A stretch of DNA of 64,000 nt, from positions 62,001 through 126,000 of the forward strand of contig NIVC01000751.1 of NCBI GenBank assembly GCA_002269645.1, written 5' to 3'. The position numbers and the translations under genes are program-made. Source of the stretch: Macrostomum lignano. Its lineage: Eukaryota. The notes beneath the pieces are model-generated. The model searched no databases and had not been told where the DNA came from. It worked only from the letters and a program-made list of their open reading frames with translations. Numbering within the stretch: the stretch's first letter is position 1; each line of letters starts with the position of its first letter. Positions 17,607 through 36,980 of the stretch are shown one piece after another.

Positions 17607-18109
17607 GAAAGACAAAAAGTGCTTTACTGTCATCGACTATCAGTCCATTAGCGTTAGTGTCAACCATAGTTGCTTTTTGTGGCTTTTTTGTTGTTGTTGT
17701 CAGTTCCAAATAAATCGTTTCTTCGTCCGGGAAAAATAAATAAATAGCGGGCATCACGCAAAATTAAGGCCCATATATATCCCATAGACAAATGGTTGAA
17801 AAATAAAGCCCACACTTGACTAACTGCTTGGAATAGCGGGCAATTTAAGGCTCACACCATGCTCTATTATGGCCAGCAACTATACCGGGCACGAAATGAC
17901 GTTTCGCGCCCGCTGCATCTGTCAATGACAAAAACGCCTTCACTTCTATAGATCAACTTCATTTCGCGCCCGCTGTCACTGTCTATGGTAAAAATTTATA
18001 CGAAGGACACTATTTGTATATAGTAGCCTGTATTTCTCGATTATTTCTCCATTTTCTCTACAGTATTTTTTTCGTTTTTGTATCATGTTGCGCTACGACA
18101 GAATACGCT

Positions 18110-18560
18110 AAAAGGAAATTGGCGGTTTGACTGGCGATGAGTTGGATTTTGTCGCTCGTTTTGTAAACCGCGAGGATACCGTCCCAATCGGCCAATGGAC
18201 AGGCCTTACTGAGAACCATGAACGCTTCAACGACGAGGAACTCCGTGATCCAACCAACGCTGACATTTCTCTGTTGCGTGAGTTGACCTCTGAAGAACAA
18301 TATCTTCTGCGACAGGTAGAGGAGGATAGCAAGCGAAAGTCTACCGCCAAGCAGACGGAACATCATATTCAAAGGTTTAAAAAGTTTCTGATGGAACAGG
18401 CAATGCCAACCGACATTGAGAGCATCTGATGCTGGTTCAAATTCTCTTTCGAACTGCATGATAGCCATTAGAAGTCCAGTTGGCGAAGCACCCAATTCGT
18501 TTGGGAACTGCAAGTTCGAAAACTGTACCTTAACATCACCCTCAACAAGTGAGTGTCTGA
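18110..18560 (+). pseudogene. internally deleted Crypton remnant F
   Basis: LRELTSEEQYLLRQVEEDSKRKSTAKQTEHHIQRFKKFLMEQAMPTDIESI, then the typical tail FGNCKFENCT(F)NITLNK*. Confidence 0.65.
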
Positions 18561-18799
18561 TCGAGCAGACTGAACTTTTAGCATGTTTGAGACAATGATG
18601 CGTCCCCTACTTCACTGTATACGTAAATAAGAGCTAAATAAGAGCTAAATAAGAGCCCACATTTCGTTTTAATCTGTTATTGCTGGTTGACTTACAATTA
18701 ATGACCGGCCTTTAATCAGAGGTCATTACCACGAAGTGACATTTTAATCAATGACCGCTGCTGTTTTTAATGTCTATGGCCAAGTTGAAGGGTTGAAGG

Positions 18800-19135
18800 G
18801 ACGCGAAGGACCACCTTCTTATTTACAAGAATATGCGACCTTGAGGCTGCCGGGCACAGCATGTCCGACATCATGTCCATCACTGGAAAACTATCTGAAA
18901 GAACAACGCGCCGGTACCTGGCCAAGAGACGGGATCGACCATTGCAACAATCCAGTGCAGCCGTGGCGTCAGTGCTTCAGCTACGAGTAGAAGATGAGAG
19001 TGCAGTTGCTCTGCAGCCTGGTGCCGCCCAGCGAACGGTTATTGACGAGTCGGAAGTGGCGAGGGAGATCAGCGTCGGGTCGGGGCCCAAGCTTGTCGTT
19101 AAAAACTGAACGTTGCATGGTTGCACATTCAATTA
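18800..19135 (+). pseudogene. tyrosine recombinase C-terminal remnant G
   Basis: ICDLEAAGHSMSDIMSITGKLSERTTRRYLAKRRD (box II-like IMxITGHxSxxxxxRY) and tail LVVKN*TLHGCTFN*. Confidence 0.6.
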
Positions 19136-20351: not shown

Positions 20352-23148
20352 CCCGGGTAGCAAAGTGACGTTTCGCGACGTCAAAATGACGTTGAAAATA
20401 GGTCAAAGTGTAACGTCGAAATGACGTCAATTCTGTCGATGTTTTTTACGTAATTTTTGACCTAGATCTGTGACGTTGTTTTGACGTCAAAATGTACCGA
20501 AATTTTACCGTCTTTATTTAATAGATTTAATGGCTTTTAAATGCACGAAATGACTGGTATGATGTCTTTTAAGAAAACAAATGTTACTGGCTTTATGATT
20601 GATGGTTATCTTTGCATTCTGAAGTCAACTTTCTTTGAATGTGTGTAGGCAGTACATGTATACCCATCTTATTTCTAGAAGCTAATTGCAGTGGCGTAGC
20701 TAGGAATTTCCTTCCGGGGGTCACAGTCACAGCGGCAACCGGGGGCGGGGTGTTAGGCCTCTGCGACGGGGGAGGGGGGCTGCTGCCTGTATTTGACCTG
20801 GATCAGCCGGCTGGGGGGAGGGTTCATGACCCCAAATGACCCCCGTTGGCTACGCCCCTGGCTAATAGTTACATTTTTACCCGAAAATATTAAACAAGAA
20901 TACATGCGGACAAAGCCTTATTTTCTTCTCTTGTATACATACATATTGTAGACATTGGATTTAGAAGTTATTGTTACTTTTCTTCGTAAATTGTTATTTT
21001 AACACAAATTAAGTTGATGCTTGCATATTAAAATTTATGAAAAGGATGGTAATAAATTAAATTTTAAAAGTTGAAAAAATTACAATAGCGACAAAAACGA
21101 CAGTACTGACAAAACAGAATAGAATGTTGAAAACAGTGTCATTGAAACAAATATAAGGATGAAAGCAGCAAACAACAGAACTGTAGAATAAATAGAGTAG
21201 TTGCATATTGCTGCATATTGCCTAGTCTTTCACTCAGAAGATCTACATCAAATTCTTGATAGTCCTCAGTCTCTGAATTGGAGGAGACTGAATCAAATGG
21301 TGAATTGTTATCCTCTTCCTCAACTCCTTCCTCAAATTGACTAGCTGACATCCCTTCATGACAACCTGTTCCAATAAGCAGGGATAATGTCATCATAGGA
21401 ATGAATTTTCTCCTCCTCATCTAGGAGTTGGAATTAGTATCATTGATAGCATATAGTAGCAATCTCTCCTGTCCTCTTCACCTAGGTGGCCATCTGAAAT
21501 AGGCAGAAAAAAGTATATTTGGTTATAAAAGGATTTTGACTTATGCATTTGTACAGTTATATTTTATACATGCATCTATAAATTGCAATATACAAAACTA
21601 TATTATATAGAAGTCTTTAGCCTTACTCTTAGTCTTAGGATTTCTATACATAATCCTATAAATCTTTTTACTTTTGTTCAGACTTTCTATTCAGCTAAAA
21701 AATCTGCTTAACCACAAATTAAACAATAGTGCCCTAGCAATGCTACAATAATGTCTAAAATATGTCTAAATATGATTAACAAGCTATAGGCTACTTGATG
21801 GGGCAAAACATTAATAAATATATGTTTTAATATAGAATATAGCTAAGCATAAGTTTGTTAAGGAAATTGTAGCTCTAAGAGTGCTAAAATGAGAAATTAG
21901 GGCCTACTAAAGATTTTAATGAGCTAAGGCCTAACTAGGAAACTAAAGTATGTTTTAAATGCTAGGCCTAACATGAACTTAGCATGTATAATAGATATAA
22001 TGTCATTAAATGGCTGATTAGTAAAACTAAGAAACAAAAATATTAATTTCAAATCAAGTATGCCAAGCTTTTTTGTATGATAGAAATGCTAGAACAACTG
22101 CACCTTCCGAATAAAAATTTGAAATTGGATAGAAATGCTAGAACAACTGCACCTTCCAAATAAAAATTTGAAATTGGATCTTAGATATGATATCTAAGGT
22201 CCAATGATTATAATATATGAATAGGCTGAGAGTAAGACTGATTCGAAAATCAAGCAGTTCTTTGCAAACTGTATGTATGTAGGAATTTGATTTCCAGACA
22301 ATTATTATTTTGATAGGAACTATGTTTAACTCTAGTAGTTGTGAATTCATTGTAATCAATGCAATACTTGTGGTAGGCCAGGCTATTATTACTGTATATT
22401 TCCAATACAAACAGCAGTACTGATAGGAATTGGGGAGAGAGAAAGTAGTAGAGTTAAAATGAGCAACTATCTTATTAGCCAGCCAATTTAGCAAAGTTTG
22501 TATTAGTCGCTAAATCAGCCATGATTTGGATTGGTATTGCTTTAAGTCATTCTATACCAAAAACATCTATTGGTATGTTTTATGGCAGCTGAAAATATTT
22601 CGAATAATATTCAACCAGGAGAAAGATGACGTTTGATATCATCGTGAAGGTGAAGTTTCATATAGCTGGTAACACTAACTAAATAAAAAAGCAACGCCAC
22701 TTTTGATCTATACATAAAGCGATTTATCATGCAGCAAAATATTCAAATATACGATTTTAATAACACGTATTAACAAAATAAAACTGTAAAAAACGAGCCT
22801 TAGTTTTTCCCTTACTTTTTTCAGTTTTATAAAAATCATTAAATCTACGTTATTATAAAGTAATGCAGCATAGAAACGTCAAATTTTGGGTTCCATAATG
22901 ACTAAAGTTTGACGTTGATTTTTCAACCTACTTTCAACGAATATTTTACGTTACTTCTTTTCTATTTTACAGGTATAATTGAGCTAGCAAAATGATGACC
23001 AGGCCTATAAATGCATATTGACTCTGGCATCTAATTATGCAAAAATAAACTACAATATCAACGAAGACGGGCTGGGGTGAATAGATTTGCGAAGGTAATT
23101 TTTGCGACGTCAACGCAACCGCAAATTGACGTCAAAATGCTACCCGGG
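20352..23148. mobile_element. EnSpm/CMC-like non-autonomous DNA transposon, 2.8 kb
   Basis: Perfect 11-bp TIR CCCGGGTAGCA...TGCTACCCGGG; dense subterminal GACGTC/TGACGT repeats at both ends; AT-rich interior; no clean TSD seen. Confidence 0.75.
20689..20860. mobile_element. hAT-like MITE, 172 bp, nested in the EnSpm-like element
   Basis: TIR CAGTGGCGTAGC...GCTACGCCCCTG; 8-bp TSD GCTAATTG/GCTAATAG (7/8). Confidence 0.85.
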
Positions 23149-23149
23149 A

Positions 23150-24183
23150 AGTATTGCGAAATATGGGCTGCATCTGTATGGCAACTTGTCAAAGTATAAA
23201 TTACTATTACCAATCACAGACAAGGCTAAGCCAGCAGACTATTCAATGGCTGTGGCTGCCTACGAGGCGACTATTCCGGTTTCGTAGAAACCGAAGTGCA
23301 CGACACCGCGGCTCCTGACACCGGGCGTACCGCTGCACCCAGCAGTGCCCCTGTCTGCCAGTGTCACCGCTACCGCTGACGCGAGTCTCCGAGCCTTCCG
23401 TGCAATGTCCATATAGATGGTATATGTGCGAAACGCTTCGCAGATGAAGATGATGCTGGATAGCGCCTTGAGAAGGGGATACGCTACTCAACTTGCGATT
23501 GGTAAGTAAAAACTCGCTGTGCCGCTTCTTTATGAGCGATCTTGCAGCTGCAACGATAGACATCGATGATAGCTGCCTGTCTCGCAACGTCCTGCTCTAC
23601 AGATGGGTCATGTCCTACCCGTTGGGCAGTGTGACCCCTCGGCCAGACGATTCACAGTTGGTTTGTGGCAACCCGCTGCTGATGCGACAGACTCGAGTAT
23701 TTTTCCTCAGTACAGATAATGCACCAGATACGGGCCGAGGAGTTGGGCATTAGCCCGCTGCCGTCCACCCTGGTTCGACCGAGTTTGTGCGGTGTTCTCA
23801 AGCTGTCTCCGGTAGTGGCATCGACCGCGGCTGCTGCCGCAGCAGATACCTCGCTCAGCAACATTAGCGCGCACCGCGTTGTGCTGGGTGGCGGCTGGGC
23901 AGTCCAGCGCGAGCTTTGCGCCTCAATGCGGCAGGCACTTGTAGCTCCGGCTATATTGTATCCCTGGGGACCAAGCGGCGTTGGGAAGTTCGCTATGGTC
24001 GCAATACACTTCGGCCGCGAGACAGTGTACACTCCCGACTTATCGGAGACTTTCCCATTCGACGGACTGAAGCTCGGCATCCATCGCTGTCTATTCTTCG
24101 ATGAGTTTTGCAAGTACACGCGTCAAGGGGGCGCTGCAAAAGAACCCACAGCGGCAGACAGTCTGCATGCACGCATCGATTGA
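23150..24183 (+). pseudogene. degraded CRESS-DNA-virus-like Rep (SF3 helicase C-terminus; endonuclease region degraded)
   Basis: Walker A ILYPWGPSGVGK (G at 23968, K ends 23988) and Walker B HRCLFFDEF (D at 24100), with an intervening FPFDGL motif; upstream frameshifted Rep-like segments PCNVHIDG...LEKGIRYS and CLSRNVLLYRWVMS. Confidence 0.7.
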
Positions 24184-24589
24184 TTAGTCGAAACTGGAGG
24201 GCCGGCACAGAACCGAGTGGTGGTGGAGGCGCTACAGTCTTGCTGAGCCTGTCAGCGAGTAAGCGCATCCCCGTTTTGACCTCTTCTGGCAGACTATCAT
24301 AGTATGTCGACTATCACAGCAAGCTGCATGCGGCCGAAGCTGCTGCTGACGACGGAAACGATGAAAGTGTCGCCCGAACCAAACGGCGTCGGCAGCATCA
24401 GCAGCAGCGAAAGTTGTAATCTTTGGCAGCGTCTGCGGTGGTTGTGGCGGCTACGGTCAAAGCGGCGGCGGCGGCAGAGGTGACTGAGTTCGAAGCGGCA
24501 GCATTTAGTCAGCCTAAGCAGCATCAGCAAAATGCTGCAGTAGACAAACTGGACGCCGCGGTTTACGGCGAGGCGGCGGCCAAACAGCT

Positions 24590-25030
24590 AGCCATTTTGA
24601 AGATATGTTATTCGACGAGGAGACCGGTATTCGCGACCGGCAGGACGCTGGTTTCCGAAAGGAATGGCAGTTTTACAATCTGGCGATGACGGCGTTGGCC
24701 AGAATGAACCCAAGCGCCGGCTTTCGCGATGCCTCATTCTGGTTGACGGATCTAAGGCAGGCTGCCAGAGGTCCGGTCCTCGTCAGAGAGCTTAGGAACG
24801 GCACGCATCCGGGCTGAGGCAATCGTCAAGTGCGTCAAATATATGCTCGATTATATAGACAACGACCCAGCGCGACTAGCAGCTGTCATTTCATCATTGT
24901 GCGTTGGGCCCGTGTTTGTGGGGGAAATCACGTGCACCCAGACCAGACCCCTGCCTCCTCTGGACAAAACCCGTGCGCCAGTTGCTAAAAAAGCAACAGA
25001 GCCACCAATGAATCGCAGCGGGGGATCTTG
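24590..25030 (+). pseudogene. unidentified coding-like remnant downstream of the Rep
   Basis: GC-rich, protein-like across a frameshift: FEDMLFDEETGIRDRQDAGFRKEWQFYNLAMTALARMN... / AEAIVKCVKYMLDYIDNDPARLAAVISSLCVGPVFVGEI. Confidence 0.3.
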
Positions 25031-26083: not shown

Positions 26084-29000
26084 TCAATCACAGCTCCCGA
26101 GTTGCGAGTAGGTCAGCTTCTCAGGTGGCCATCGCCGGCGTGCAGGCTGCAGTCCGCAGGGCGCGTCTGGCGGCTCCGGCTCCGGGCCCTCCGCGCCGGT
26201 CCCGGTCGAGTCCGCAGCTTCAGCTGGCTCGGTCCCGACTGCTGGACCGTCAGGTTCGTCGCTCTCGACTCGCAGTTGGTCGGCATGACGGCGCCAGGTC
26301 AGGCCGTCGCTCGTTTCGATTCGGAAGCTCAGCGGCCCAGTCTGCTCGAGAACTTTTGCTGGTTGCCAGGCCGCCGCATTAGGCCGGTAGTCCCTGGCCC
26401 AGGTCTCCGACCACGGCTCCTCCGGCAGCTCCCGCGACCGCCGGTCGTGCTGTCGTTTCTGGGCAGATTGCTCCCGCAGTACTCGATCCCGAGCTGACGT
26501 CCACAGCAGGTCCATTCGAGTCCGGAGCAGCCGCTTCAGGAAGAGCTCCGCTGGTGTCCGACCGGTCGTTGGGTGCAGGCTAGCTCGGTAGCCCAGCAGC
26601 CAGTTGCACAGGCGGATGTCGAGGTCCGGCTGACTGCTCCGTGACGCCTCCATGGCCATCTTGAACGACTTCACCAGCCGTTCCACAAGTCCGTTGGTCT
26701 TGGCGTGATATGGACTGCTTCTTGTGTGGTGAATTCCATTTGCTTTGCAGAAATCGCTAAATCCTTGGCTGATGAATGCTGGACCGTTGTCCGATACCAG
26801 TTCTCTCGGCAGGCCCCATTGTGCAAACAACACTCGCAGCTTGCGAACCAGCTCGGCCGATTCGAGTGTTGACACGGCCTCCACATGCGGCCACTTTGAG
26901 TGCGCGTCGACTACGAGGAGAAACTGGCGGCCTCGAACCGGCCCGGCAAAGTCAACGTGGATGCGGTCCCAGGACTGGTCTGGCCACACCCAGGGGTGCA
27001 GTGGAGCCAGCACCGGATGCAACTTAACGGATTGGCAGGCTTGGCAGCTGCTGGCAACCGACTCGATGTTAGCATCCATTCCTGGCCACCAGACGGAGGT
27101 TCTGGCGACACTTTTCATCCGGGCCATGCCGAAATGTTCCACGTGTAACTCGCGCAGAACTCCAGCTCGCAACGCTTCCGGAACCAGTACGCGAGTTCCC
27201 CAGATCAGGCAGCCGTCTTCCACGCTTAGTTCTAGTCGACGACGAAAGTAGGGCTAGAGCCGCGGCGGAACCGACTCTGGCCAGCCAGTCATTATCATCC
27301 GGAGAACATCTCGGAGCTCGTCATCTTGCTTCGTCATTCGCCGCCGTCAATGGGAACTCGCCCGTCAGCTGACAGACCCGATCGTCGTCGTCTGGGCTGT
27401 CGTCCTTCATCTGCTGGGGCAAGCGAGACAGGCCGTCTGCGTTGCTGTGCTGAGCAGTCTTGCGGAACCGGATGCTGTAGCTGTACCCTGACAGCAGCAG
27501 TGCCCATCTCTGAAGTCGCCCTGCTGCAGTCATGGAGATGCCAACCTTCGGTCCGAAAATCGTCGTCAACGGCTGATGATCCGTAATTATCGTGAAGCTC
27601 CGGCCGAACAGGTACTGGTGGAACCGCTTGATAGCGAACACGATGGCGAGGGCTTCTTTCTCAATTTGCGAGTAATTTCGCTCCGCTGCTGACAGCGTCC
27701 TTGAAGCAAAAGTCACCGGCCGTTCCGAGCCGTCCTCCATCGTGTGGTACAGCACCGCGCCAATGCCGACCGATGAAGCATTCGCGGCCACCACCACTGG
27801 AAGCTGCTCGTTGAAATGCGTCAGCACGCTGTCCGAACTCAGTTCTTGCTTAAGATGGTCCCAGGCTCGGTCCTCCGTGTCAGCCCACCGCCAGTCCGTC
27901 TCCTTCCTCAACAGTTGATACAGAGGAGCAGCGATCGTGGAGAAGTCCTTGACATGTCGAGCATAGTAGTTTGCGAGGCCCAAGAATGATCGCAGCTCTG
28001 ATACTGTCGCTGGCTTCGGGCTGTTGACTATTGCTTCCACCTTCTGAGGCAGCTTCTTGACTCCGTCCTTGCTCAGCGACAAGCCCAGGTATTCGACTTC
28101 TTGCAGAAATTTGCACTTGATTCGCTTCAGCCGCAAGCCCGCCACTCTCAGCCTGGTCAGTACCTCGCGAAGCGCTGCTAGGTGCTCACTCATTGACGGA
28201 CTGGAGACCAGGATGTCATCAATGCGGCAACAGACTCCCGGCACGCCCTTCAAGTGTTTCCATCAGCCTCTGGCAAATCGCAGGTGCCGAACTGACGCCA
28301 AATGGCAACCGGAGGTACTCGAAAAGCCCTTTATGCGTGTTGATGGTCGTCAGCTTGCAGCTCTCTTCGTCGAGTGGAAACTGAAGATAACATTGTGACA
28401 GATCGAGTTTTGAGAACAGCTGACCCTGTCCCACCTGCTCGTAAAGCTCTTCAGGCGTAGGCAGCGGGTATTGGTCGATGTGGAGCTGAGGGCTCAACGT
28501 CAGTTTATAGTCGCCGCACAGTCGGACTGAGCCGTCCGCCTTGAGTACCGGAACCACTGGCGTAGCCCACTCGCTGTAGATCACCGGGCGGATGATGCCT
28601 TTGTTGAGCATGTCCTGGAGCTCGAGCTCCAGCTTGTCCCGCACTGCGAATGGCACGGGTGTGGCCTTGCAGAATCGAGGCTGTGCGTCACTTTTGAGTC
28701 TCAGTGCGACTGTCTGATCCTTCAACTGCCCCAGGCTCTCGTCTAAAACATCAGCGAACTCCTCCAGCATTTGGTCGAGAGGCCCGCTGTTCTGCGCCGG
28801 CGCCTGGCTGATCTGGTTGGCAAACAACTGAGTCCAGTTGAGTCGCACTTTTTCCAGCCAATTGCGTCCTAGCAATGGGCAGGCTCCGGTCTGACTGGTG
28901 ACCACCAGCGGCAGCTTATCATGCTGTCTTCCGTCGTAGTTGACCCTGACCTCGGCTGTTCCCTTGACTTGTATTGGCTCGCCCGTCCAGGTCCGGAGTC

Positions 29001-29596
29001 GCAGGCGTGTTAGTGTCAGCGGAGGTCGGCCGAGCTGCTTCCACACCGACTCCGGTACGAGGCTGACGCAGGCACCGGTGTCCAGCTGCATGGTGAGGGA
29101 CTGGTCATTTATCAGCAGGCTTACGCTGATTTTCTTGGCCGATGCAGTGACTTGCGAAATCCAGCCAGTTGCTGCTTCCTCCTCCTCTTCCGTTTGCATT
29201 GCGTGCGCTGGTCCGTTCTCTGGCCGTCCGGCTTTCGTTGTACTGGAGGCTTTCTTGGCTGAGCGGCAAACTTTCTGCAGGTGTCCAACTTTCCCGCAGT
29301 TGTGGCACTTTGCGGTCCTGAAGTGGCAGGCTGCCGACAGGTGGCCTTTGAATCCGCACCTGTAGCACGCCTTAGAGTCTGGCGCTACCTGCTGGACTGA
29401 GCTGACCTCTGAGCTCGATTTCCATTGCTCAGTTTCCGACTTTGCAATCTCCGCCGCGAGGGCAATTTTCTTGGCCGCATCCAGCGTGAGCTTCTCCTCC
29501 ATCAGGAGTCGCTGCTGGGTCCGCTGGTCCCGAAGACCGCAGACGAAACAGTCTCGGAGAGCTTCTTCTCGAAACCCCCTGAACTCGCACGAATTT
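26084..29596 (-). mobile_element. Ty3/gypsy LTR retrotransposon gag(partial)-pol, 5'-truncated and disabled
   Basis: gag CEFGGFREEALRDCFVCGLRD plus CCHC knuckles; protease QLDTGACVSL; RT LPFGVSSAP / RIDDILV split by a frameshift at ~28250; RNase H with DAS->NAS; stop/frameshift at ~27250-27320; integrase HHCC and HVDFAG...SDNGPAF...NGLVERLV (26084-27223). Confidence 0.97.
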
Positions 29597-29619
29597 ACCA
29601 GAAGTAAATCTACTTTCGG

Positions 29620-30290
29620 ATAATGCTTAAAAACGGAACTGAACTACGCTCGATAAGATATAAATGCGAAGAATTGCGCTGCCTGCCACCGTTGAAAGAG
29701 GTCCAGTGCCGCAGGTGCCAAGGCCTCGGCCACCTTGAAAGCCGGGGGGAGGGCGGCTGCTCAGTTCAGGTGCAAGTGCGCTAGGGAGCATTTCTCAGGA
29801 GACTGCCTAATGGACACGGGCTTTAAGTGCGCGAATTGGGGCCTCGATCACTCAACCTTCTACAAATTCGAGAAATTAAATAAAATTAACTAACAAGCTG
29901 GAAACTGAGCGTGAGCATAGCAGAGTAATGGAGCTTAGAAGAAAATTTAGTCAGGGGGCTTTAGACATAGACAGGGGGATCCTAGTTAAGGCCCGGGACT
30001 TCAGGAGATCTTTCCGGTGTACTAGGTCAGTGGGTTGAGCGTAGCGATCCTGCGACCACCCAAACTGCGCCTGCTACCAAGACTGCGGACTCTGCAAGCG
30101 GTGAGCAGGGTTTTTATTAAAGTGAGGTCCTGGAGATAGTACTGAGGGCCCTCAACAGGCTTAAGGAGATCAATCCGGGTAAATCGCTTACTACATGGGA
30201 AGCAAGCCAGCTTGCAGCCCGTATATTAAGTGAATTTCTGGCGACTTCTTGTGCCCAAGAGAGCCCGCAGTCAGGTAGGCGAAGCTGAAG
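29620..30290 (+). pseudogene. LINE (Jockey/I-like) ORF1 3' part with three zinc knuckles
   Basis: QCRRCQGLGHLES (29704), FRCK-CAREHFSGDC, KCANWGLDHSTFY. Confidence 0.75.
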
Positions 30291-31632: not shown

Positions 31633-32010
31633 CTAACAGTTGGGTTCATTGCATGCTTGTAATAAATTTTTGATGATGACTGAGCAGTTATTAAAACTGA
31701 AATTCAGCTGACGCTCACCGCGGACGCTAGCTGCGTCTGTCTCAGCCTCACGTAGTATTTTAGCGTCCAATACAGCGCAGGAATTGGCTATTTGAATGTC
31801 GGACGTCCGCTTGTACGTGCGGACTCCAGCCAAACTTCGGTGGCCTGTTCGTTCCATTATTTGCTGTTCTTCAACGCCAGCTTGGTAAAGACGTGTAGCA
31901 CACGTAGCGCGTAGACTATGATTAGTCTTGTGGCCAGAAATCTCGGCTTCAGTGCACATTTCATGCAGAAACTTTGCCAGGGTGTTTTTGCCAATTGGAC
32001 GATTCGAGGA
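31633..32010 (-). pseudogene. Crypton tyrosine recombinase remnant H: intact catalytic C-terminus, 5' part missing
   Basis: RPIGKNTLAKFLHEMCTEAEISGHKTNHSLRATCATRLYQAGVEEQQIMERTGHRSLAGVRTYKRTS...FSFNNCSVIIKN; HxxR, H and Y are intact. Confidence 0.92.
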
Positions 32011-32221
32011 CGATTGTTATGGAGTGAGGCTTTCCAGCTATTTATCTGTCCTCTGTCTGTCTTTATAAAATATGTCTATGGTATAGAATACACCCCCAAT
32101 ACAGTATTGATGTCTATGGCCAATTTGCGGGTTGTAATTACATACAACCCGGAGAATTTTTACTAGCTGTTATATAAATTAGCGGGTTGTATTTTTAGCG
32201 CATGAATTTAAGTGAGATGAC

Positions 32222-35743: not shown

Positions 35744-36980
35744 CGAAGGGTGCTTATTAAGTTCCCGGAAAATGCAGCTTAAAAACGCGCCAATTAAACG
35801 AAACTTGACCAGCAGTTAGGGTCGGATGTTCTTCGTTTGCTTGTAAAATTTCAGCTTAATCGGTCGCAATGATCCGCCGCAGTGGCCAAAGTTTGGCTGA
35901 AAAAGTGCCCCCCTTGCCACAGCTGACTGACCGCGACAGGCGAGTGGCGATCCTGGTACAGTTTCGGCTGGGCAGCTCTGCGGCCACCTGCCTCCAGACG
36001 CTGCGTGAGGCTCTTCAGGATCAAGCACCATCCCAGTCGATGGTGTATGAGTGGTTTGCGTGCTTCCGCTGTGGCTCGGCCACTCTGGACGACGATCCTC
36101 GCGAGGGGCGGCCGAGTTCGGCCGTGTCCGACGGAGTCGTTGCTGCTGTTCGACGCCACGTGGACGAAGATCGGCGAGTGACGATTCGCTGGTTGGAGCA
36201 GCTCGTCGGGGTGTCGGATTCCACCATCATTAAGATCCTGCACCAGCACCTCGGCATGAGGAAGCTGTCCGCTCGCTGGGTACCCCACCAGCTCAGCGCT
36301 GACCAGATGCGAGCCCGAGTTGAGTTTGCCGACCTCATGGCGGCCAGGTTTGACGAAGGCCGCTCAAAGTTGGTGGATAACATCCTCACTAGCGACGAAA
36401 CATGGGTCTACTTCTATGACCCAGAGACCAAAGAGCAGAGTCGGCAGTGGGTTACCATCGAGGAAGATGCTCCTCTCAAATTTCGTCGCGAGCGCAGCGT
36501 CGGGAAAGTGATGGCGGCCGTTTTCTTCCGACGCAGAGGCATCCTGCCGCCAGTGCTGCTGCAGCAAGGCGCCACAGAGACAGAAGAATGGTACAGCACC
36601 GTCTGTTTGCCTCAGGTTCTGCAGGCGCTTGCACAACAGCGGCCGAAGACGCTTGACAAAGGCATCTTCCTCCATCAAGACAACGCTCCCGCGCACCGGG
36701 CACGAGTGACCCAGGAGTTCCTTCAGGCGACCGAGCTCGTCCAGCTGCCGCATCCGGCATATTCGCCGGACCTGGCGCCTGCTGACTTCTTCCTCTTTCC
36801 CAGAATAAAGAAAAATCTGAAGGGGAAGCGCTTCGACTCCAGGGAGGAGCTGGTTTTTGCGCTGCAAGCTGAGCTGGACAGCTTCACCAAAGCTTATCTC
36901 AGGCGGTGCTTCGATGCATGGTTCTAGCGCCTGCAAAAGTGCTCCGATTTGGGTGGAAATTATGTTGAGAAGTTATAAAG
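35744..36980 (+). mobile_element. mariner DD34D transposon, near-complete transposase (ORF 35869-36927)
   Basis: WVPHQL, TSDETW, HQDNAPAH, YSPDLAPAD with exactly 34 aa between the 2nd and 3rd D; left end TA|CGAAGGGTGCTTATTAAGTTCC; premature TAG at 36925 removes RLQKCSDLGGNYVEKL; right TIR not found. Confidence 0.95.

Follow-up and report, generated by a model that had tools for sequence, protein, structure and literature searches.

Does the viral-type helicase sequence in this part of the Macrostomum lignano genome record a past infection, or does it belong to an element that moves? The 64,000-nucleotide stretch that we analysed (contig NIVC01000751.1, positions 62,001 to 126,000, forward strand; hereafter the window) contains an open reading frame (ORF) at 23683-24183 on the + strand that encodes GPSGVGKF (23968-23991), FDG (24058-24066) and LFFDE (24091-24105), with a spacing of 38 amino acids between the Walker A lysine and the Walker B aspartate. 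A pattern running from Walker A to Walker B, written post hoc, had a single match in the window, and 0 of 100 shuffles matched it. The initial annotation had placed these three motifs in one frame, as this ORF bears out, and had proposed an SF3 helicase of CRESS-Rep ancestry that was left behind by an old endogenised virus or carried by a Rep-driven mobile element. A Helitron PIF1 helicase belongs to the wrong superfamily and was ruled out.

A decayed copy of a dispersed family

A search of the genome for other copies, as the annotation had suggested, was productive. The 88-amino-acid helicase piece from the window matched 36 of 36 scored candidates, and the family is present on at least 34 contigs, undeleted copies included (a second query added five; the count includes haplotype twins). 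There are four deep subfamilies, A (to which the window copy belongs), B, C and D, with 25-50% protein identity between them. Copies with both ends mapped measure about 8.0-8.1 kb, and each element has two genes, a Rep homologue and a C2H2 zinc-finger (ZnF) protein with a predicted tyrosine-recombinase fold, which are intron-bearing or ZnF-fused.

By sequence comparison, the window stretch is a decayed, internally deleted copy of this family. It has allelic twins on contigs C3828 (97-99%) and C1267 (92-95%), and its homology to non-allelic copies extends from 23255 to about 24929. We annotated the following features:

20352..23148, no strand assigned: foreign high-copy insertion of 2797 bp with an 11-bp perfect terminal inverted repeat (TIR); absent from the C3828 and C1267 allelic copies
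23255..23501, + strand: upstream exon remnant of the Rep-like gene (start of the HUH-like domain) with one internal stop; from tblastn
23502..23534, + strand: GTAAGT donor-like site, followed by a deletion of 271 bp; from comparison with the allelic C1267 copy
23523..23711, + strand: last part of the HUH-like domain plus linker helices, frameshifted near 23690; from tblastn
23683..24108, + strand: SF3 helicase fragment with a degenerate CxxC, Walker A, FDG and Walker B; from sequence comparison and tree
24131..24929, + strand: frameshifted N-terminal remnant of the ZnF/tyrosine-recombinase gene, catalytic domain absent; 83% DNA identity to C1024:133273-134074

The 2797-bp insertion is not part of the element, because the allelic twins lack it. 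Its right end, which matches many contigs, gave rise to the start coordinate of the initial annotation. Compared with the empty sites on C3828 and C1267, it sits between TTT and AAG without a target duplication, and it has no transposase-like ORF of 100 amino acids. Window DNA upstream of 23255 matches other repeats and was rejected as part of the element, the 5' part of which is absent from this copy.

The upstream exon remnant aligned in one frame with the copies on C1024, C2956, C3789 and C957 (tblastn, E to 3e-18). LEKGIRYS (23467-23490), previously likened to the Rep motif III region, is off-frame, and its frame is not conserved in the relatives; the conserved frame beside it is MLDSALRRGYATQLAIG (23453-23503), which runs into the GTAAGT donor at 23502. 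The motif III equivalent lies at about 23520-23560 and is interrupted by the 271-bp deletion (at 23523-23534), which takes the end of the intron and most of the HUH-like core. The following segment (23523..23711) has 54-71% identity to its relatives, in a frame that differs from that of the helicase. Motifs B' and C and the arginine finger are deleted from the helicase fragment, which grouped with subfamily A in a quick tree (SH-aLRT 96). Relative to the C1024 copy, about 2.7 kb is missing just past Walker B, fusing the helicase to the second gene, so the ORF past Walker B is not helicase. The recombinase remnant is 38% identical to the C957 recombinase ORF.

The annotation had also remarked on a phenylalanine in place of threonine or serine after the Walker A lysine, and rightly so: among 29 loci (L021-L049) the lysine is followed by threonine in 19, by serine in 8 and by phenylalanine in 2, the last being the window copy and its C3828 twin, to which the change is private. 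Between the window copy and its C1267 twin, dN was 0.043 and dS was 0.048 over 139 codons (dN/dS of 0.9). With dN close to dS, the window copy is drifting, and we consider it to be dead, as judged from its sequence.

Other mobile DNA surrounds the remnant. A Gypsy-type LTR retrotransposon (gag, reverse transcriptase, RNase H and integrase) occupies 26084-29643 on the - strand and starts just to the right of it. Crypton-type recombinase fragments lie at 31633-32016 (-; Phage_integrase match, E 3e-12), 18058-18606 (-) and 18789-19109 (+), and a 355-amino-acid Mariner-type transposase ORF lies at 35860-36927 (+).

A Rep-derived helicase with a putatively inactive nuclease domain

To trace the ancestry of the first gene, we built a profile from 7 natural ORFs of the family and searched it against 1.84e9 proteins, which yielded 176 proteins at E<=0.001. 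The first ten matches were family-like; intact HUH-SF3 Reps came next, from E 3e-13, and several of these scored best on the N-terminal domain. A profile search had been part of the annotation's proposal. The family profile did reach the intact Reps, and the window fragment alone matched 0 Pfam families. In hhalign comparisons, the family aligned with the intact HUH-SF3 Reps at 99.9% probability (E 8.6e-31, 296 columns, with motifs II, III and C aligned) and with a second Rep group at E 1.6e-20. A structural model of the Rep-like protein (pLDDT 82, built from 30 family-like rows) matched AAV Rep68 and vientovirus Rep over both domains, and also papillomavirus E1, SV40 LT and, at E 2e-11, CRESS Reps. 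A wide structure search, which used mainly residues 189-360, matched the model to the PCV2 Rep ATPase (Z 10.1, r.m.s.d. 3.7 over 119 amino acids). The hhalign result and these predicted fold matches support the CRESS-Rep ancestry of the SF3 helicase.

Shorter queries gave less. The first match of the window fragment in the ESM Atlas scored 0.88, which we treat as a lead; an undeleted copy scored 0.94-0.95 to CRESS-type clusters, with recognition under the bar of the tool. A search of PDB sequences with the helicase returned only generic P-loop matches, and a word-indexed search with one helicase found 0 matches among 2577 candidates. A cellular NTPase was considered and rejected; STAND-type leads stemmed from the truncated fragment.

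Undeleted copies have all of Walker A, Walker B, B', motif C and the arginine finger within about 120 amino acids. Walker A with K[ST] (27 of 29 loci), Walker B, B' and the arginine finger are kept across the four subfamilies. Motif C is LAGH in the family versus ISN in intact relatives, and ATPase activity is therefore not assured. The nuclease motifs are gone: the motif III tyrosine occurs in 0 of 17 family rows versus 13 of 13 intact Reps (alignment A5, rows with letters there), a comparison that is partly circular in that environmental fragments, placed in the family by their profile score and a missing tyrosine, make up 10 of the 17 rows; the HxH of motif II occurs in 0 of 9 family rows versus 12 of 12 intact Reps, and one family row has no letters at either motif. 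The HUH-like domain nevertheless has a dN/dS of about 0.2 (A versus B: dN 0.43, dS 2.1, near saturation), and helicase pairs gave 0.13 and 0.31, with some dS values near saturation. These ratios indicate that the HUH domain, predicted to be nuclease-dead, is under purifying selection.

The Rep phylogeny that had been proposed was also informative. When 64 rows were placed in a quick tree without bootstrap, the 13 from the family came together (SH-aLRT 99), nested in a larger set of Reps that was separate from circovirus-like Reps.

The gene contains spliceosomal introns. A donor is found at the same place in subfamilies A, B and C, an intron-less version is present on C1518, and subfamily D has a GT-AG intron after Walker B. 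For subfamily B, a 151-nucleotide GT..AG joint that keeps the frame was present in all 4 of the runs judged, as a guess, to be probable RNA; these come from 3 studies. The spliced B contigs may represent read-through out of the C2240 copy's flank; no RNA record holding the B copy was found.

Relatives outside the genome

Nuclease-dead N-terminal fragments of relatives are present in environmental assemblies. In five of them (P0036, P0039, P0041, P0050 and P0071) similarity ends at the same residue, as it would at a shared intron, which suggests eukaryotic hosts. The nearest intact relatives include L225 (JABUBP010010063.1), a circular 2317-nucleotide unit with an intact Rep and a second, arginine-rich ORF that lacks any Pfam match. 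L223 and L224 also encode intact Reps of this sister group, members of which are found on contigs of up to 9.4 kb as well, large for CRESS viruses. In IMG/VR, we found one ordinary CRESS genome through the Walker motifs and one through A9, and none with P0031, A8 or the recombinase. Phage records held no match, and a metagenome scan with P0002 found none.

A linked gene with a predicted tyrosine-recombinase fold

The second gene encodes a C2H2-type ZnF region upstream of a domain in which R, K, R and Y are invariant in 7 of 7 rows. The catalytic residue set of tyrosine recombinases is RHRY; the histidine positions of this set are not conserved in our rows. The protein had no integrase match in Pfam or PHROGs, no match in the PDB by sequence and none to DUF3504, and hhalign against a 4-row profile of Cryptons from the same genome gave 0.2%. 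A structural model (pLDDT 58) pointed to a fold: the ten best Foldseek rows were all Cre or XerH, the best with E 0.011 (probability 1.0) and all E-values above 0.001, and the comparison with XerH gave Z 9.9 and an r.m.s.d. of 4.1 over 160 amino acids. On this structural prediction, gene 2 has a tyrosine-recombinase fold. Its dN/dS of 0.16 shows that this gene, too, is under purifying selection. A protein word-indexed search with the recombinase profile had 2 matches, both from M. lignano. In the probable RNA runs there was little contig cover of the gene; contigs show presence only.

The two genes are linked. Of the 25 helicase loci examined, 17 have a recombinase gene no more than 8 kb away. 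The share is 16 of 19 in subfamilies A-C and 1 of 6 in D, and several of the loci were counted on stretches of only 10 kb. The genes are in tandem in A and B and convergent in C, and recombinase-only stretches are also present in the genome. Several unknown ORFs are shared in the flanks of subfamily D (L197:1299-5909, L200 and L079:5659-6588), one of them with the same ZnF pair as the recombinase gene; as an element, D may exceed 20 kb.

Precise ends and empty sites

Ends were mapped in two of the four subfamilies, B and C. The B copies at C957:80449-88537 (8089 bp) and C1267:166988-158754 have exact ends in common, unrelated flanks and 96-99.7% identity, and a third B left end is found on C2240. 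For B, the empty site lies within a Polinton-like element's terminal repeat and reads GCAAACTT; the site when filled shows GCTATCTT on the left and GCAAACTT on the right. The C copy on C150 is 7962 bp long, its empty site is preserved in four contigs with the core GACAAATT, and ACAAA is present at both C ends (C150 and C283). Comparison with the empty sites revealed neither a target site duplication (TSD) nor a TIR at the B and C insertions, and short imperfect core repeats instead. Short iterated repeats lie inside the ends and, in B, are inverted between the two ends. For the nonanucleotide of a CRESS-type stem-loop origin, one pattern was compared with both subfamilies; the stretch of B had 0 matches, and C had 3, all internal.

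On C1267, C2956, C3789, C796, C157 and C267, copies from different subfamilies form clusters with 5-40 kb between them; on C1267, 1.2 kb separates a B copy from the window copy's allelic twin. Such clustering possibly reflects a preference for sites that resemble the elements' own ends.

These junctions bear on both origins that the annotation had offered. The mobile element is supported. The Rep-driven, rolling-circle part of that proposal is not, as the HUH catalytic residues are absent family-wide, the junctions are of recombinase type and a recombinase-like gene adjoins the helicase. Nor is a plain endogenised CRESS virus supported: no candidate ORF for a capsid gene is left between the mapped ends of B and C, and the introns, the missing HUH residues and the junctions are likewise at odds with it. 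This reading would have plain endogenous CRESS Rep fragments degrade and be duplicated passively, in keeping with the circular L225 genome among the nearest intact relatives and with the neutral evolution of the window copy. It is already largely refuted by the empty sites and has to contend with a catalytic loss that is clade-wide and followed by purifying selection, with near-identical copies that have precise ends in unrelated flanks, and with introns and a linked recombinase; we regard it as very improbable.

Could the element instead be an integrated small double-stranded DNA virus or satellite, one whose capsid is too divergent to recognise or comes in trans, perhaps from the genome's own Polinton-like viruses? 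A Polinton-like element that carries capsid-like and A32 ATPase genes has one B copy in its terminal repeat, subfamily D seems larger and has extra unknown ORFs, and relatives occur in environmental assemblies, all of which would suit a virus. Yet the mapped ends of B and C leave no ORF for a capsid, the other mapped insertion sites are unlike that terminal repeat over the junction, and the IMG/VR candidates include no relative of the recombinase. We therefore consider a virus or satellite improbable. The neighbourhood of the C957 copy (about 89.5-105 kb; L057:4500-10000 and L058) contains weak double jelly-roll, A32 ATPase, integrase-like and PolB-like pieces; its double jelly-roll and packaging ATPase genes are outside the ends of that copy.

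A model for the element

The explanation that we favour, with a probability of about 0.6 for the model as a whole, is a capsid-less element of about 8 kb that encodes an HUH-dead SF3 helicase derived from a CRESS Rep together with a predicted tyrosine recombinase, and that likely moves as a circle. That it is mobilised by a recombinase is, taken separately, very probable. From the sequences we infer the circle, its replication and the enzyme activities as follows. The recombinase would excise a double-stranded DNA circle and re-integrate it across the 5-8-bp imperfect core. The nuclease-dead Rep would bind the short iterated repeats near the ends (placed on either side of the circle junction once the ends are joined) and would unwind the circle as a hexamer. 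Papillomavirus E1 and polyomavirus LT support theta-type replication, and by analogy host polymerases could copy the circle by the theta route. The outcome would be copy-and-paste movement without nicking. The copy number is low for a replicative element. An end-to-start joint was not among the joints listed for 8 runs; assembled contigs drop rare forms and show presence only, and a missing joint is therefore no evidence against circles.

All of the junction evidence would fit equally well if the circle were never replicated and the element moved by cut-and-paste, like a Crypton, with the Rep-derived protein as an accessory that binds the ends or remodels the complex. The low copy number, the altered motif C and the recombinase-only stretches agree with such a role. 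Against it speak the iterated end repeats and the purifying selection under which the four subfamilies keep Walker A (with K[ST] at 27 of the 29 loci), Walker B, B' and the arginine finger, and we judge it unlikely, if less so than a virus or satellite. Replication of the circle by the Rep-derived helicase is the reading that we retain.

Comparison with known systems

The closest known proteins are the Reps of an unclassified CRESS group with a YxTKED-type motif III, which share the full-length homology with an HUH-fold N-terminal domain and an SF3 helicase; that group comparison included weak matches to PF00799, PF00910 and PF19263. Unlike CRESS viruses, the element lacks HxH, the tyrosine and a capsid; it has LAGH, an added CxxC, introns, a length of about 8 kb and a linked recombinase.

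Cryptons have 4-6-bp terminal direct repeats, no TIR and a proposed circular intermediate, as set out in the main text of PMC3212892, in which the word 'helicase' occurs 0 times. The element resembles them, as they are described there, in having a predicted recombinase gene, short terminal direct repeats and neither TIR nor TSD, but adds a Rep-derived SF3 helicase inside its mapped ends, and its recombinase is unmatched to DUF3504 or to the small profile of the genome's own Cryptons.

In the E1/LT proteins, according to the sections of PMC6668415 that treat them, the HUH domain was inactivated and became structural beside an SF3 helicase. The element combines an inactivated HUH domain and an SF3 helicase as well, with fold matches to both proteins; unlike E1/LT viruses it is capsid-less and is predicted to integrate by its own recombinase. 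Since its Rep comes from a different, identifiable Rep group, the inactivation was likely independent. The corresponding sections on bacterial pCRESS integrative plasmids describe capsid-less units with a Rep-SF3 protein and site-specific integration with att repeats (PMC6668415); as presented there, these are bacterial and have intact HUH motifs, whereas the element resides in an animal genome with spliced genes and a putatively nuclease-dead Rep.

Polinton-like viruses (PLVs) with an OLV11-type recombinase and S3H pair a recombinase with an SF3 helicase in eukaryotes, in the account given in parts of PMC4642659. Their capsid proteins, packaging ATPase and primase- or TVpol-linked S3H, as listed there, have no counterpart between the element's mapped ends. 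Replitrons and Helitrons are Rep-type eukaryotic transposons in which HUH is the active transposase, and the portion of PMC10288648 on Replitron-1 reports no SF3 helicase detected in it; in the element, by contrast, the HUH domain appears dead and a recombinase is present. We did not find the pairing of helicase and recombinase described in the literature searched (supplements, Repbase and subscription journals were outside its scope), and a DNA element of this kind is apparently undescribed.

Implications

If the model is correct, the element would be an animal counterpart of the bacterial integrative plasmids and a second case, this one traceable, of a rolling-circle Rep that dropped its nuclease and kept its helicase. 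Nuclease loss is the step thought to have produced papillomaviruses and polyomaviruses, and we know of no identified intact-nuclease ancestors of these viruses. With the intact sister Reps in hand, the transition becomes directly comparable here. The element would also add a very divergent, predicted eukaryotic tyrosine recombinase that leaves no target duplication. More tentatively, and at somewhat less than even odds, a CRESS lineage may have independently repeated the papilloma/polyoma switch, its HUH nuclease becoming an origin-binding domain and theta replication of double-stranded DNA taking the place of the rolling circle. Such a lineage would have lost its capsid and gained a tyrosine recombinase, and the family would then be an order-level new class of eukaryotic mobile DNA that persists in animal nuclei as an integrative episome capable of replicating itself and has relatives in further eukaryotes that are unsequenced. 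The family also carries a warning: a Rep-like match in an animal genome can come from a transposon gene instead of a fossil of infection.
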